From the IMG/VR virus record IMGVR_UViG_3300005827_000046, positions 1 through 41,740 of that record: DNA of 41,740 bases. One strand, given 5' to 3'. Under the pieces are notes generated by a model. It ran no database searches. It saw only the letters and a program-made list of their open reading frames with translations, and was not told the origin of the DNA. A program made the translations under genes and the position numbers. The stretch comes from a virus. Shown here piece after piece: positions 24,972 to 35,557 of the stretch (within the stretch, counting starts at the first letter, position 1; every line of letters begins with the position of its first letter).

Positions 24972-25000
24972 ATTCTATGTTGACAACAGCACCTAGTCAA
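24972..25000 (-). promoter_or_regulatory. Leftward promoter (TTGACT-17-TAGAAT)
   Basis: Minus strand has TTGACT at 25000-24995, a 17-nt spacer, then TAGAAT at 24977-24972. It lies about 30 nt upstream of the cro-like ATG. Confidence 0.65.
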
Positions 25001-25008
25001 CGTAAATT
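24980..25008 (+). promoter_or_regulatory. Rightward early promoter (TTGACA-17-TAAATT)
   Basis: TTGACA at 24980-24985, a 17-nt spacer, then TAAATT at 25003-25008. It lies about 50 nt upstream of the SNF2 helicase ATG. The two -35 boxes form GTTGAC-N12-GTCAAC. Confidence 0.65.
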
Positions 25009-25059: not shown

Positions 25060-26562
25060 ATGCGCCTCACCTTCAACCAAAATCGAAAGAGATTCGAGAC
25101 TGAAACACGACACGCGAAATTACTGGTTGACGACGTGAACAAAGTATATTACGCCGACACTATGCGCATCGCCTTGCCGTTCTATGACTGTATGGACGAA
25201 GAGGCGAAGAGAATACTTGACCGCCGACGAGTCATCACTTACAGCGAAAAGACGCGAGGCGATGCGCACCAACAAACTGCACGGCCTGCTGATTCCGCGA
25301 ATGAAGCTGTCCCCTCCATCTACGCACTTTTGCGGCCCTACCAGAATCAGGCCGTGCAGTTTATCCTTGAACGAAACCACTCCTATCTATTTATCCCGCC
25401 GGGTCTTGGTAAAACACCAATCGCTGCACGTGCGGCCATCGAGGCCGGAGCGTATCTCATTTATATATGCCCGCCGTCTGTGCGAATCAACACCGAGCGC
25501 GAACTTTTGAAGTGGGGACTAGCACCAAATCAGTTTTGCGTGCTTCCCGATTCGCAAGTTCATCGATATGTTGAGGCTGCACGGAAACAAGCGGCGCACG
25601 TATGGCTTGTGGTTGATGAGGCTCATCGATTCAAGTACGCGGACACGCGGCGCGGGATGGCAGTCTACACGCTTGCTGATAGCTTCGAACGCGTTGTACT
25701 CATGTCCGGCACCGCCATCACGCGTGGATACTGGGACCTTTGGGCACCTCTTCGATATCTCGCATGGAACTGTATAGACTACATGGACCAATACAAGTAC
25801 GCGGCGATGTATTGCGATCCGCTCCATGGACGCGAGGGCTTCCAGATTGGTGGCAGCACGAACGGCAAGGAACTAAGAAAACGCCTCGCCCCGTTCATGT
25901 TCAGCGTCCTGAAAAAAGACGCGGCAAAAGACTTGCCCGCGCGTATGGAATCTATTTTGATCGTGGGTGAAAACCTCCCGCGCGATTTGGCATCAATGGA
26001 CAAAGAACTTTTGAAACAGTATTCGCCTATTGATATTGCCGAAGGCAAGTACAACCTCGAAACGGACGGACACATTGCAACCTATCGCCGGTTGCTGGGT
26101 GAAATAAAGGTCAAGCCTACACTTGATTATTTGATCGACGAATTGGATTTCGGCCACGAGTCATTCATTGTGTTTTGCTACCACCGAGATGTTGCGAATT
26201 TGTTGTATGAAGGTCTAAAGTCTTTTGCGCCTTCATTGATCGTGGGCGGAATGACTACAGAGCATAAACAGATCAACGCTGATAGATTTCAAAACAGAGA
26301 AACTCGTGTGATCATTGGCAACTCGGCCATGTGGGTTGGGTACACATTGACAGCCGCAAGCCAAGTGCTATTGGTTGAGCCATCATGGACGCCCGCAGAT
26401 AATGAACAGGCAATTGATCGTGCTCACCGCATAGGCCAGACGTTGCCCGTCCTCGCCCGCTATGTGTGCTTTGAGAATTCAATAGACCGGAAAGTGATTA
26501 ACGTGAACTTGCGAAAGCGTGAGAAGATAGAAGATTTTAAAAACGGAGGTGATCAAAAATGA
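25060..26562 (+). CDS. SNF2-family helicase
   Basis: Motif I PPGLGKT, motif II VVDEAHRFK, motif VI QAIDRAHRIGQ. Confidence 0.9.
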   Translation: MRLTFNQNRKRFETETRHAKLLVDDVNKVYYADTMRIALPFYDCMDEEAKRILDRRRVITYSEKTRGDAHQQTARPADSANEAVPSIYALLRPYQNQAVQFILERNHSYLFIPPGLGKTPIAARAAIEAGAYLIYICPPSVRINTERELLKWGLAPNQFCVLPDSQVHRYVEAARKQAAHVWLVVDEAHRFKYADTRRGMAVYTLADSFERVVLMSGTAITRGYWDLWAPLRYLAWNCIDYMDQYKYAAMYCDPLHGREGFQIGGSTNGKELRKRLAPFMFSVLKKDAAKDLPARMESILIVGENLPRDLASMDKELLKQYSPIDIAEGKYNLETDGHIATYRRLLGEIKVKPTLDYLIDELDFGHESFIVFCYHRDVANLLYEGLKSFAPSLIVGGMTTEHKQINADRFQNRETRVIIGNSAMWVGYTLTAASQVLLVEPSWTPADNEQAIDRAHRIGQTLPVLARYVCFENSIDRKVINVNLRKREKIEDFKNGGDQK

Positions 26563-26882
26563 GTACTGAATCGCTAGGAGAACTTAAGCGGTTAGTGTCG
26601 AGGATTAATAACCCCTCTTTGCAGGAGGAATTCGTAAAGTGGATTGATATAAATGTCCGGGTTTTCGTATCATCCCGAGTGCTGGAAGTACCAATGAGCG
26701 GTAACGAAACACCGACGTCCGAAGCATTGAAGCACCTACTGATGATGGATTTAGTCAATTATATCTATGACACCGTAAAGGGGGAGAGCACTTTTTATAC
26801 GCTGAATCCGCACAGACGTTTACATCGGTACAGCCTCGGCGTTTTCGGCCCGCTTAAAAAAGAGGTGATCAAAAATGAGTAG
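26559..26882 (+). CDS. Hypothetical protein
   Basis: 107-aa ORF with ATGA overlap to the SNF2 stop and GGAGGTGA RBS. Confidence 0.65.
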   Translation: MSTESLGELKRLVSRINNPSLQEEFVKWIDINVRVFVSSRVLEVPMSGNETPTSEALKHLLMMDLVNYIYDTVKGESTFYTLNPHRRLHRYSLGVFGPLKKEVIKNE

Positions 26883-27171
26883 AGCATACAAGATACGAGG
26901 ACCGGGAGAATATAAAACGCACAACGGCTGCAAGGTTCTCTTGAAACGGAAAATCCTTACCGCCCAAAAAGAAATCAGGTGGGAGGGTGTACTGCACCAA
27001 TACGGGCAACGGCCCCTTAACACGAATTGGGGGCCGAACGGCAACGTGTTTGATTCGGAGGAGAGCCCTTATGATATTGCCGGACGGTGGGGCGATAAAG
27101 ACGACATTGCGGATCGCATAGATACATTGGAGCGAAGAATCACAGAACTGGAAAGGGTGTTGATGACATGA
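26875..27171 (+). CDS. Hypothetical protein
   Basis: 98-aa ORF. Its initiation region is the same 20-nt gaggtgatcaaaaatgagta as the previous gene. Confidence 0.65.
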   Translation: MSRAYKIRGPGEYKTHNGCKVLLKRKILTAQKEIRWEGVLHQYGQRPLNTNWGPNGNVFDSEESPYDIAGRWGDKDDIADRIDTLERRITELERVLMT

Positions 27172-27539
27172 GCACAGAAATAAAAAAGTGTCCGTCATGC
27201 GGGTCAGAGGGAATATTTTTTAACCGCCCAGATCGTCACATGTATGTCGTGTGCTCAAACGACTACTGCACGATGAGCGGGCCGAGCGAAAGTAAAGAAA
27301 CCAGTGCGGATAAATGGAATGCCTTGCCAAGGCGCGAGGGCGCGCTCGTTACGGGAATGGACCCGCCTAAATGTGAAACACGCGAGTTAGCAAAAGAGTT
27401 GCGAAAGCGGTGTAAGTGGGGTGAGGAGGATGGATGCCCCAGCGAATGCGAAGTGCTTGACGTATGCGGAGAAGGAAGTATCCACTCGTGGTCATTCCCT
27501 TGTCCACACTGCAACGGAACGGGGAAAGAAAACCTATGA
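27168..27539 (+). CDS. Lar-like zinc-ribbon protein (restriction alleviation family), paralog 1, with an extra Cys-rich C-terminus
   Basis: KKCPSCGSEG...VVCSNDYCTMSGP...ADKWNALPRR fits the Lar pattern C-P-x-C-G ... C-x-x-x-C ... W-N-x-x-x-R. The C-terminus has CPSECEVLDVC and CPHCNGTG. Confidence 0.6.
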   Translation: MSTEIKKCPSCGSEGIFFNRPDRHMYVVCSNDYCTMSGPSESKETSADKWNALPRREGALVTGMDPPKCETRELAKELRKRCKWGEEDGCPSECEVLDVCGEGSIHSWSFPCPHCNGTGKENL

Positions 27540-27655
27540 GTCTTTTAATTATTATATGTATCGGATTTGCGCTTTTGGTTCTTATTGTGACCGGTATCGT
27601 TATTGGTGCCGCAATCACTTTTTGTCGAACATTGATGGACCTTGAGGACAAATAA
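27536..27655 (+). CDS. 39-aa single-pass membrane peptide
   Basis: ATG at 27536 overlaps the upstream TGA (ATGA). Sequence begins MSLLIIICIGFALLVLIVTGIVIGAAITF. Confidence 0.55.
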   Translation: MSLLIIICIGFALLVLIVTGIVIGAAITFCRTLMDLEDK

Positions 27656-27657
27656 TC

Positions 27658-27906
27658 ATGGGGTTTTTAGCAATTTTCATACCTCTATGCTTTGTGTTTT
27701 TCTTTTTGGTAATGAGCCGGTTTCACCTTGCGTTTCACCACATTGAAAACCTAAAGGGTAGGGTCAAATTACTCGAAGACGCCGCCAACCGCATACCCGT
27801 TGCCGCCGTCAAAGGGTTGGACGACACAGAGGCTTTTTTGGTTAGTAGTAGGGAACAACCTTTAGGGGTTGTCAGTATTAAAGACATAGGGAGGATACTG
27901 AAATGA
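27658..27906 (+). CDS. Small membrane protein (N-terminal TM, then a helical and a beta segment), paralog-like set member 1
   Basis: 82 aa. MGFLAIFIPLCFVFFFLVM is a TM helix. The C-terminus is PLGVVSIKDIGRILK. Confidence 0.6.
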   Translation: MGFLAIFIPLCFVFFFLVMSRFHLAFHHIENLKGRVKLLEDAANRIPVAAVKGLDDTEAFLVSSREQPLGVVSIKDIGRILK

Positions 27907-28250
27907 GCATTGAACTAAAACCCTGCCCGGCATGTGGTGGGGTTCCAAAACGGTATGATAGATTCATATTTTGTTTTTCAAAAGGCTGTCATGTGTCTGG
28001 TCCATACGATGACCAAGACGGTTCAAAGTGGAACGCCCTTCCAAGACGCGATGACGTACATGAAACCCTAGAGGATAAAGTCATTCGCGAGGCGCATCAG
28101 AAATATTTAAAGAACAACAAGATCACCAAGCGCGACCTTTTTGCGGCGGCTGTTTTGGTCGGTGTTAACCTAAACCAGTTTGGCTTTGATACCACAGCCG
28201 AACAGTGTTTTGCGGCTGCCGACAAAATGATTGAGGAGAGTTTGAAATGA
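27903..28250 (+). CDS. Lar-like zinc-ribbon protein, paralog 2
   Basis: MSIELKPCPACGG...CFSKGCHVSGP...DGSKWNALPRRDDV. Confidence 0.65.
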   Translation: MSIELKPCPACGGVPKRYDRFIFCFSKGCHVSGPYDDQDGSKWNALPRRDDVHETLEDKVIREAHQKYLKNNKITKRDLFAAAVLVGVNLNQFGFDTTAEQCFAAADKMIEESLK

Positions 28251-28567
28251 ACATCGAATTAAAACCCTGCCCAGCGTGTGGGAATGATGGACTACTTTTT
28301 GGGCAACGTGATTGGTGTACCTATGCTGTATGTACCAATGACAAATGCTGTGTGCATGGGCCGTTATACGACACCGACGGCTCAAAATGGAACGCGTTGC
28401 CAAGACGCGATGACGTGAAAAACCAACCGGATGAGGGGGCTTTGCTAAACCACATCACCACCGCTTACTTCCTATTAGGCCCTGTACTACGTAACAACCA
28501 CTCGCCTGAGAGCATGGTCGAGGTCTATAAGCACCTACGCGAAAAGATAAAGGCGGTGATGACATGA
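28247..28567 (+). CDS. Lar-like zinc-ribbon protein, paralog 3
   Basis: MNIELKPCPACGN...CTNDKCCVHGP...DGSKWNALPRRDDV. Similarity to paralog 2 is visible at the DNA level. Confidence 0.65.
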   Translation: MNIELKPCPACGNDGLLFGQRDWCTYAVCTNDKCCVHGPLYDTDGSKWNALPRRDDVKNQPDEGALLNHITTAYFLLGPVLRNNHSPESMVEVYKHLREKIKAVMT

Positions 28568-29240: not shown

Positions 29241-29551
29241 CCATTGTGTTTTTTGGTGGTGTGGTAGTAGAGTTATTTATGTTCGGGTTCTGTGTATACT
29301 TGGCCAAAGCCGCACTAGAAGAGACGACAGAAATCAGTCAACGCGTTAACAGGTTTGAAAAACACTGGCAAGAAATCGTACTGGAAAACAAAGGAACACC
29401 GAAAAAGGAAAAATCAAATCGGGTTTTGGTAGAGGACACGGTTAAAGTCTGGCATGAAGGCGGTGTTTCCTACATCCGCTTGTGTGATGCCGCCTTGCTC
29501 CCTCATACTGGGACAAGAGTCCACGTGACCATAGAGGAGATAAATCAATGA
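29237..29551 (+). CDS. Small membrane protein, paralog-like set member 3
   Basis: 104 aa. TIVFFGGVVVELFMFGFCVYLA is a TM helix. The C-terminus is GTRVHVTIEEINQ. Confidence 0.6.
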   Translation: MTIVFFGGVVVELFMFGFCVYLAKAALEETTEISQRVNRFEKHWQEIVLENKGTPKKEKSNRVLVEDTVKVWHEGGVSYIRLCDAALLPHTGTRVHVTIEEINQ

Positions 29552-29772
29552 GCAATGAGCCAAAGACATGCCAAGACAATGCATGCCCAACGGTTGAAAG
29601 CCTCCGGGCGCTCAACCTCAAACTGAAAAACCACAACGTGCGCATGTTGTCCGCGCTTCGGTGGTACTCCGATCCGGACAATTACGTTGATGGTGATGGG
29701 TGGTGTACAGTAGAACTTGTCGGGACAATGGCCGATGAGGCGCTTATTGATATAGGAGTAAAGACGAAATGA
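29548..29772 (+). CDS. Hypothetical protein
   Basis: 74-aa ORF with ATGA overlaps on both sides. Confidence 0.6.
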   Translation: MSNEPKTCQDNACPTVESLRALNLKLKNHNVRMLSALRWYSDPDNYVDGDGWCTVELVGTMADEALIDIGVKTK

Positions 29773-33598: not shown

Positions 33599-35557
33599 AT
33601 GGGATATGTTGTAATCGATTTCGAAACACGGTCCGAGGTTAAAATAAAAACGCAAGGGGGCTACGTTTATGCCGAGCACCCATCAACAAGATCAATGTGC
33701 ATTGCGTGGAGATATACAGCACAGCAAGACCGACAAGCCCTAAAATACATGAAAACGCAAGTCGCATGGACGCTTGATGGTACGTTTCCAAAAGACCTAG
33801 CGAAGCTATTACTCAAGCCATCGGTCAAGATCGTTGCCCACAATGCCAATTTCGAGCGCCTCATTTTGAAGCATGTTCACAAATGCGACATACCCATCAA
33901 CCGGTTTTTCTGCACCGCTGCGCAAGCACGTCGGCTGGCCCTTCCGGGGAACTTGGAAGGCGCAGCGATTGCCGCAAAACTTGCGATCAAAAAGGATATA
34001 GCCGGGAATAAGTTCACTCTGAAATACGCGTGCCCAACCCGCAAAGGGCAGTTCCTAGAGGTGACACCGGAGGCAAAGCAGCGAATCATGGACTACTGCG
34101 CGACCGACATCGACGCCGAGGTTTTATTATTTTGCAGTCTCCCACTCACCACCGGCCCGGATTCGTTACGTATATATGAAGTCGATCAAAAGATAAACGA
34201 CCGGGGTTTCCGTGTGGACGTTGACCAATGCCGGGCAGCGATTGAACTATCCGACGTAGCCGCAGCGAACGATACCGATAGGCTTATACGCCTGACCGAT
34301 GGCGTAATCTCCACACCAACCCAAGGCGAACGAATTAAAAAATGGTGCGCTGAAAGGGGAGTTGAATTAGCTGACCTCACGGCCAAGACGGTCAATGACA
34401 CTTTATTGAGCGGTCAAGCAATACCCGATGACGTGCGGGATATGTTGGAGATACGTCAAGGTGGCGCGAAAGCATCCATCAAAAAGTACAACGCCGCCCT
34501 TGATCGCGTGAGCCGTGATGGTCGCATTCGTGGTGCGTTCAACTACCACCGGGCGTCAACGGGACGATGGGGAGGCACTGGTTTTCAGCCCCATAATATG
34601 CCCCGAGGAATAGTGAAGCACCCCGAAATTTATGTTGAACTGATAAAGATGCAAAGTACAGACATGATCGACCTCATCGGATACCCGCTTTCAAGCGTTC
34701 TATCGTCGTGTGTTCGATCCGCTATCATACCGTCGGATGGTCACGATTTCATATGTGCGGACTACGCGAGTATTGAGACGTGCGGTCTGTTCTGGCTCGC
34801 CGATCACAAAGTTGGCCTTGAGATGATTCGTAACAAAGTCAACCTATACATGGACCTTGCGTCCAGCATCTACGGAAAACCTATAACAACCAAAGAATGC
34901 TTCGAGTACCAAGTAGGGAAAAAGGGGATATTGGGTCTTGGTTATCAGATGGGGGATAAAAAATTCACGGGGGCATGCGAGCAAGACGGGATTATTTTGC
35001 CACCCGGGATGGCGTGGCAAACGGTGAATACGTATCGTAGGAAGCATGCACCAATTCCGGCACTATGGGAAAAGGTAGAAAACGCTGCCATAGACGCCGT
35101 GCGATTTCCCGGGAAAGCCTACACGGCAGGAAAAACAAAATGGTACGTTGACCGTGGGTTTTTGGTTGCCGAGCTACCATCACGTCGGTGCATCGTGTAC
35201 GCCGAGCCTCGTATTGACTTCGAGACGTATAAAGGTAGACCCTCCCCGAAACTTAAATTCATGGCCGAGCAGGCCCAGACGCGCCAATGGGTTGAAGAGT
35301 CTACATATGGTGGGAAATTGGTTGAAAACATCACGCAAGCGGTATGTTGTGACCTATTGGCATCTGCGCTTTTGAGGCTTGAATCACACCCGCTCTATAG
35401 AGTCGTGGCGCATACGCACGACGAGGCGCTGGCTGAAGTACCCATCGGTAAAGGCAGCGTTGAGGAGTTTATAAAAATAATGTGCGACGCGCCCGCATGG
35501 GCGGAAGGGCTACCAATTCGCGCCGAAGGATGGCGCGGTCCGAGGTACAGAAAATGA
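33599..35557 (+). CDS. Family A DNA polymerase with 3'-5' exonuclease domain
   Basis: Exo motifs VVIDFETRS, VAHNANFE and YCATDIDAE. Pol motif A DYASIETCG, motif B QVGKKGILGLGYQMG, motif C VAHTHDEALAEV. Confidence 0.9.
   Translation: MGYVVIDFETRSEVKIKTQGGYVYAEHPSTRSMCIAWRYTAQQDRQALKYMKTQVAWTLDGTFPKDLAKLLLKPSVKIVAHNANFERLILKHVHKCDIPINRFFCTAAQARRLALPGNLEGAAIAAKLAIKKDIAGNKFTLKYACPTRKGQFLEVTPEAKQRIMDYCATDIDAEVLLFCSLPLTTGPDSLRIYEVDQKINDRGFRVDVDQCRAAIELSDVAAANDTDRLIRLTDGVISTPTQGERIKKWCAERGVELADLTAKTVNDTLLSGQAIPDDVRDMLEIRQGGAKASIKKYNAALDRVSRDGRIRGAFNYHRASTGRWGGTGFQPHNMPRGIVKHPEIYVELIKMQSTDMIDLIGYPLSSVLSSCVRSAIIPSDGHDFICADYASIETCGLFWLADHKVGLEMIRNKVNLYMDLASSIYGKPITTKECFEYQVGKKGILGLGYQMGDKKFTGACEQDGIILPPGMAWQTVNTYRRKHAPIPALWEKVENAAIDAVRFPGKAYTAGKTKWYVDRGFLVAELPSRRCIVYAEPRIDFETYKGRPSPKLKFMAEQAQTRQWVEESTYGGKLVENITQAVCCDLLASALLRLESHPLYRVVAHTHDEALAEVPIGKGSVEEFIKIMCDAPAWAEGLPIRAEGWRGPRYRK

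Follow-up and report, generated by a model that had tools for sequence, protein, structure and literature searches.

What do three small related proteins, encoded close together in the replication arm of an uncultured phage, do for that phage? The genes lie in a 41,740-bp viral record, which was analysed at its full length (the window) and which is a complete phage genome with direct terminal repeats and a GC content of ~50%. A first-pass annotation, made from the sequence, had described them as three diverged paralogs of the Lar restriction alleviation family. It had proposed either an anti-restriction set diversified against several host systems, or a zinc-ribbon scaffold reused for new targets.

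The three open reading frames (p1, p2 and p3; Table 1) are real, translationally coupled genes: each begins at the first start codon after a stop, is preceded by a Shine-Dalgarno-like site and has an ATGA stop/start overlap with a neighbour. The motifs that had been read in them are all present. The N-terminus carries EIKKCPSCG in p1 and ELKPCPACG in p2 and p3, and the second Cys pair is followed by SGP (p1 and p2) or HGP (p3) and then by KWNALPRR with E or D. In BLASTP, p2 and p3 are 54% identical (E 4e-19), p1 and p3 43% (E 9e-18), and p1 and p2 40% (E 8e-12), a homology of the heads that is, at the sequence level, far beyond chance. The similarity is limited to the first ~55 residues and ends at about residue 57. 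The likeness of p2 and p3 also extends to the DNA: the stretch encoding KWNALPRRDDV is identical at 31 of 35 bases and DGSKWNALPRRDDV is common to both, the two genes being moderately diverged elsewhere. A six-frame HMM scan of the window for a fourth copy returned exactly three heads (next match, E 0.016), and a search of the whole record agreed, with no further copy.

Table 1. Positions of the features in the 41,740-bp window.
Feature	Position	Strand	Basis
Promoter-like site, putatively heading the rightward arm with the three genes	24980-25008	+	Consensus scan, 10/12 matches
SNF2-type helicase gene	25060-26562		
Near-identical sequences (…gaggtgatcaaaaATG)	26540-26561 and 26856-26877		
p1, 123 aa: Lar-type zinc ribbon head and Cys-rich tail	27168-27539	+	ORF; PF14354; AF2; BFVD
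p1 head, aa 1-58: predicted Cys4 zinc ribbon and helix, GP-x11-WN class	27168-27341	+	Alignment, HMM, AF2
p1 tail, aa 59-123: 7 Cys including CPSEC and CPHCNGTG	27342-27536	+	Homology searches; poorly modelled (AF2 pLDDT about 50)
Small protein with hydrophobic segment, 39 aa	27536-27655		
Small protein with hydrophobic segment, 82 aa	27658-27906		
p2, 115 aa: zinc ribbon head with 5-residue hairpin deletion, and three-helix tail	27903-28250	+	ORF; PF14354; identity to p3
p2 tail: KRDLFAAAVLVG...AADKMIEE motif	28050-28247	+	Weak relation to tails of P0039 and P0117 and to PHROGs 2201 and 20565
p3, 106 aa: zinc ribbon head (GP-x8-WN class) and orphan 49-aa tail	28247-28567	+	ORF; PF14354
Small protein with hydrophobic segment, 91 aa	28564-28839		
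Small protein with hydrophobic segment, 104 aa	29237-29551		
ORF of 74 aa with N-terminal C-x4-C	29548-29772		
Strong terminator-like hairpin	33555		
Family-A DNA polymerase gene	33599-35557		

How firmly these heads belong to the Lar family depends on the model that is consulted. Against PF14354 (Lar_restr_allev), with a gathering cut-off of 28.6 bits, the whole proteins scored 29.9 (p1), 26.6 (p3) and 12.1 bits (p2), and a six-frame search gave 31.9, 22.1 and 10.7 bits in the same order. The profile search that had been suggested as a check therefore accepts p1 and leaves p3 and p2 below the cut-off; despite these scores, both are tied to p1 by their direct BLASTP homology. The NCBIfam model TIGR03655 (anti_R_Lar, curated cut-off 39.6 bits) is reached by none of them, with 22.8 bits for p1, 12.6 for p3 and no match for p2. 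PHROG 599, "Lar-like restriction alleviation protein", is weakly matched by all three (E 1.4e-5 to 4e-4). In comparison, Lar/RalR of the Rac prophage itself scores 53.5 bits on PF14354.

A profile of the head built from 145 relatives aligns with Rac Lar/RalR over 46 columns (hhalign 96%, E 4.4e-9). The alignment pairs the CPxCG knuckle, the second Cys pair and the WN motif, and places KWNALPRR opposite ERWNKR. Residues C8, P9, C11, C29 and C34 do not vary across the 55 members aligned, p1, p2 and p3 among them. KWNALPRR of p1, p2 and p3 corresponds to the W-N-x-R helix motif of PF14354, with W48 and R53 invariant. The AF2 models show a zinc ribbon of three short strands, followed by a helix carrying KWNAL. 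Their pLDDT over the head is 86-90 for p1 (16-sequence alignment) and about 95 for p2 (63-sequence alignment), with a range of 86-96 over the two models and a mean of 86.9 for the whole of p2. In a BFVD fold search, nearly all of the best matches carry a Lar-family annotation (probability up to 1.00, rmsd about 2 Å over 52-56 residues); for so small a domain, the E-values are no better than marginal (1.6e-3 at best). Sequence-profile searches of the PDB gave nothing significant, and fold searches of the PDB with both models gave only generic zinc ribbons of the TFIIB, ribosomal and topoisomerase types, none significant (E at least 0.06). No Lar-family structure appears to have been solved to date. 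By sequence and model, the heads are Lar-superfamily zinc ribbons at the edge of the curated models, with zinc binding predicted. The Lar reading thus stands at the level of the superfamily, through p1, PHROG 599, the profile alignment and the fold matches, but not at that of the curated family models for p2 and p3, nor for any of the three under TIGR03655.

Lar/RalR of Escherichia coli K-12 (b1348, 64 aa) is the founder of both PF14354 and TIGR03655. Like p1-p3, it combines the CPxCG knuckle with a second pair of Cys and a helix that terminates in W-N-x-R, and it is encoded in an early region with ralR beside recT/recE, just as p1-p3 lie near recombination genes. However, Lar consists of the head alone, whereas each of p1-p3 continues into a tail of 49-64 residues. 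The subfamily to which p1-p3 belong is marked by an invariant GP behind the fourth Cys and by ALPRR behind WN, and in the class of p2 and p3 a DxDG loop takes the place of the N-terminal part of Lar's helix. The subfamily departs from Lar just before the WN motif, a point against the best explanation proposed below. As summarised in PMC3177214 (citing King and Murray 1995), loss of Lar enhances restriction by EcoKI, and in that summary Rac Lar is the only family member for which alleviation of restriction and enhancement of modification of type IA restriction-modification systems are known. The same source credits Lar and lambda Ral alike with a presumed enhancement of de novo methylation, "but the mechanism is unknown"; Lar is the only member ever tested (PMC3177214).

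A different view of the family comes from the later report that the 64-aa RalR (= Lar) is a non-specific DNase/endonuclease toxin controlled by the small RNA RalA (PMC4041452). Host DNA would then be attacked by the heads themselves, acting as a nuclease, or by a nuclease that they recruit, and restriction alleviation would be indirect, DNA damage leading to ClpXP-dependent loss of HsdR; in an alternative form, they would help host DNA breakdown or recombination together with the neighbouring exonuclease and SSB. Restriction alleviation by the ClpXP route follows unmodified sites or damage (PMC4231737, PMC11109961), recombination genes are adjacent to family members here and elsewhere, and the p2/p3 class has a near-invariant D-x-D-G in front of KWN. 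This motif is, however, absent from p1, and the head is a ~55-residue zinc ribbon without a recognisable nuclease fold, for which no nuclease was matched in Pfam, PDB or fold searches. Moreover, the heads are near neutral (median pI 6.1), whereas most DNA binders are basic. A RalR-like DNA-damaging activity appears unlikely. An Rfam scan of the whole window for an antitoxin-like RNA gave no family match, the presence of RalA in Rfam being uncertain. The complementarity within the RalR/RalA pair is 16 nt only.

The three genes are part of a tightly packed chain of small genes on the + strand that extends from the SNF2-type helicase to an exonuclease, a gp2.5-like SSB/annealing protein and a family-A DNA polymerase, p1-p3 being placed between the helicase and the exonuclease and SSB genes. 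This gene content, the promoter-like site (a weak signal, as the number of such sites is not above that in shuffled sequences) and the terminator-like hairpin identify the segment as a replication/recombination (early or middle) arm, and the placement of the genes in an early arm is borne out. The polymerase has at most 36.5% identity to any match, among them phages from a spring-water metagenome and phages of Janthinobacterium, Stenotrophomonas and Achromobacter, the homologues of the last three being 35-36% identical. Judging from these sequences, the phage is very distant from cultured phages. Searches of cultured phages by blastn and tblastn gave no match to the region or to p3, and neither syntenic relatives, sought through the SNF2 helicase, nor close relatives of the whole phage were found. 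A scan of genome contigs for the pattern GxKWNALPR returned 45 pattern matches, none of which was confirmed, and hence no host taxonomy.

Other small genes of the chain deserve mention. Four of them, interleaved with the Lar-type genes and translationally coupled to them, encode proteins of 39, 82, 91 and 104 aa, all of which have a single, strongly hydrophobic segment at the N-terminal end; family searches with these four gave no match. A further ORF of 74 aa carries an N-terminal C-x4-C (KTCQDNACP) and matched neither the Lar head profile nor any family. Just upstream of two consecutive gene starts, a near-identical sequence occurs (Table 1).

On long contigs, relatives of the heads are likewise found amid runs of small unannotated ORFs, adjoining genes for RecT, SSB, DNA polymerase A, primase and helicase, which agrees with the setting of ralR beside recT/recE in Rac and with that of the present phage. 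Such a setting would suit accessory factors of replication or recombination. The ribbon would dock on a helicase, primase, SSB or exonuclease of phage or host and the tails would tune this machinery, with no link to defence. The genes indeed lie inside the replication arm and are transcribed together with those for the SNF2 helicase, exonuclease, SSB and polymerase, and one bacterium has a DnaE1 copy in which a Lar-like domain stands in place of the C-terminal domain (PMC3919608). The features that speak against this role are the orphan tails, a copy number of 1 to 3 depending on the phage and the unconserved small-ORF neighbours, a pattern more like that of accessory genes. As a rule, core helpers of replication are conserved together with the proteins they partner. 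We consider a role confined to replication or recombination improbable.

Searched against 1.84 billion representative proteins, the head profile retrieved 627 clusters at E≤1e-3, of which 29 at E≤1e-10, with the common pattern LKPCPACG...C..C..GP...KWNALPRR. Nearly all members are metagenomic and named "hypothetical protein", and a precomputed PF14354 match is present on about half of the short members. The broad alignment (A3) was too diverse for the retrieval of loci. Besides the residues named above, G38 and P39 are invariant in the 55-sequence alignment, and L5, K6, D42, G45, K47, N49 and P52 nearly so. Several of these conserved residues are not zinc ligands, and the sequence thus points to a conserved interaction surface.

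That surface bears on the possibility that the proteins share no function at all. Unrelated small phage proteins would then have reused the head simply as a zinc ribbon that folds stably, and the label "Lar" would be functionally empty. Zinc ribbons are generic, as the PDB matches illustrate, the tails are extremely diverse, and sub-threshold PF14354 matches occurred in 14 of 14 control genomes, the cut-off being passed in only one; but the non-ligand residues G38, P39, W48, R53, K47, N49 and P52 are invariant or nearly so over hundreds of clusters and the WN...R motif is common to Lar itself, which speaks for a surface conserved for interaction, not just a scaffold, and leaves this reading with little likelihood.

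Members of the subfamily differ mostly in what is attached to the head. C-terminal tails of at least 25 residues are present in 121 of 150 members, N-terminal extensions in 22, and two to four heads per polypeptide in seven. The tails fall into many small unrelated families, including MSDGELIARAI-type and EPGWYW-type tails and coiled coils. At least four Cys are found in 18 of the 121 tails, so that Cys-rich tails, such as p1 has, turn up repeatedly. Tails beginning with (W)TKEPPxEPGWYW were seen in P0043, P0071, P0072, P0089, P0131, P0141, P0146, L015:5001-5348 and L016:3054-3434; in P0043 the Lar domain is the sole Pfam match. A short tail, PNDVDC(T/K/Q)GCPERR, follows the head in the otherwise different members L012:428-676, L017:5001-5255 and P0105, and may be a mini zinc knuckle. 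Among the metagenome proteins P0012, P0050, P0074, P0080, P0083 and P0096, some carry two to four tandem Lar-type zinc ribbons, P0012 reaching 96 bits on PF14354; this multivalency may matter for the function of the family. In a provirus, a 457-aa protein (L006:4001-5371) joins a Lar-type head (CPFCGG...KWNAR) to a long unrelated body, which ends in another CPECG...C..C zinc motif.

The history of the three copies is less simple than the triplication that had been assumed. Two spacing classes are distinguished in the subfamily. The first, GP-x8-WN with the DxDG loop, comprises 95 of 145 members, including p2 and p3; the second, GP-x11-WN with a longer helix as in Lar, comprises 27, including p1. 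In a maximum-likelihood tree of 146 heads, which is weak with its 63 columns, the three copies are not together: p1 groups with P0048/P0078, and p2 and p3 are separate within the main clade. AU tests reject neither p2 and p3 as a clade (p 0.31) nor all three (p 0.144). The pairwise alignments and tree that had been called for thus confirm that the heads are homologous, but do not unite the three in a clade, and a triplication from one origin is unrejected rather than recovered. As p2 and p3 are adjacent and share an identical 14-residue motif, they are plausibly a tandem duplicate; p1 reads as an older or separately acquired copy. Five other viral records contain one or two copies each, and several diverged Lar-type genes, some with extra domains, are a common pattern in phage genomes.

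Each copy was said to have a different C-terminal extension, and the tails of p1, p2 and p3 are indeed unrelated. Among 5.8 billion proteins, full-length p1 retrieved only itself and full-length p3 only itself and p2. The tail of p1 matched none of the 121 family tails and no homologue was found in any search; for the p3 tail, the searches, including that of the family tail set, gave no relative either. The common family tail MSDGELIARAI has no similarity to any of the three. In the p1 tail, CPSECEVLDVC and CPHCNGTG are present as described, but the likeness to DnaJ is one of motif only: with the DnaJ CXXCXGXG profile (PF00684) p1 scores 10.8 bits against a cut-off of 32.7, the match falls on the head and not on the tail, and CPHCNGTG occurs once, without a repeat. 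A DnaJ-type domain was therefore rejected. The seven Cys of this tail are, from their sequence, suggestive of a possible second zinc site.

The tail of p2 is modelled by AF2 with fair confidence as three helices (residues 56-71, 76-92 and 99-114). Its motif recurs in the tails of P0039 and P0117 (RRDYFVAAALTG... and RDRFAMAALTG..., E 0.0035 and 0.024 within the tail set), and PHROGs 2201 and 20565, of unknown function, match it weakly. As the motif is found on two other members, the p2-type combination of head and tail has arisen or spread more than once.

Proteins of the same build occur in other phages. A0A8S5PPQ9 (124 aa) and A0A6J7WQ93 (123 aa) are phage "Lar family restriction alleviation proteins" with C-terminal extensions (BFVD/UniProt). 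Proteins of this type have the predicted head fold of p1-p3 (rmsd about 2 Å over about 54 residues, probability 1.00) and, since their overall length is near that of p1-p3, they too combine a head and a tail. Their identity to p1-p3 is only 20-31%, and their Lar annotation is by homology only. Lambda Ral, a small protein expressed early, shares its genetic phenotype with Lar but, to our knowledge, is not homologous to it. With type IA enzymes, it relieves restriction and raises modification (PMC3177214), and it was recovered as an inhibitor of type I restriction-modification in accessory-gene screens (PMC12373910). A further small phage protein is Enki, a 52-aa predicted zinc-ribbon protein of Vibrio phage 1.080.O, which overcomes AbiH and a retron by experiment (bioRxiv 10.1101/2024.06.14.598830). 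It is, like p1-p3, a small phage zinc ribbon, the likeness being one of predicted fold and size. Enki is a precedent for tiny zinc ribbons as counter-defence proteins against targets other than restriction-modification.

Beyond the homology, fold, modular architecture and genomic setting established above, the best explanation, which we hold with about even confidence, is that p1-p3 are early accessory host-interaction proteins, most likely acting in counter-defence. The phage would express three separate, co-transcribed and translationally coupled accessory genes from its rightward replication/recombination arm. Each product consists of two parts, a ~55-residue Cys4 zinc-ribbon head and an unrelated C-terminal tail. 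The head, which ends in a short helix with an invariant Trp and a PRR patch, belongs to the Lar/RalR superfamily as a distinct GP...KWNALPRR subfamily and would be the conserved working or docking module; Rac Lar, the protein that relieves restriction by EcoKI, is made up of nothing else. The tails would add or redirect specificity and so diversify the target or the effect. The phage would in this way make three related host-interaction, probably counter-defence, proteins early in infection. That at least one of the three alleviates type I restriction is a narrower claim, and a rather doubtful one. The diversification against several host systems that had been proposed is likewise conjectural, leaning on the single tested family member, whose mechanism is disputed (PMC3177214, PMC4041452).

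A bolder form of the counter-defence reading, which we regard as speculative and on the whole unlikely, is that the GP...KWNALPRR ribbon is a docking head for one common hub protein of host or phage, with the hypervariable tails as swappable effector or specificity modules, so that the subfamily would be a modular counter-defence platform. If this were true, the phage would carry three versions, drawn from two head lineages and each armed in its own way, and tandem multi-head proteins elsewhere would apply the same principle in multivalent form.

Few small accessory proteins of phages are as common as the zinc ribbons of the Lar family, and for the sole tested member of that family the mechanism is disputed (modification enhancer or DNase). 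By itself, the present locus adds little. It helps to define a large, mostly unannotated subfamily in which many clusters score under the Pfam threshold, the residues GP, W and PRR form an invariant surface apart from the zinc ligands, and tails are exchanged freely. The added value is modest and consists in the delineation of this large, mostly sub-threshold KWNALPRR subfamily with its exchangeable tails. Comparing the head alone with the head plus tail within one phage would offer a clean route to the binding partner of the head.
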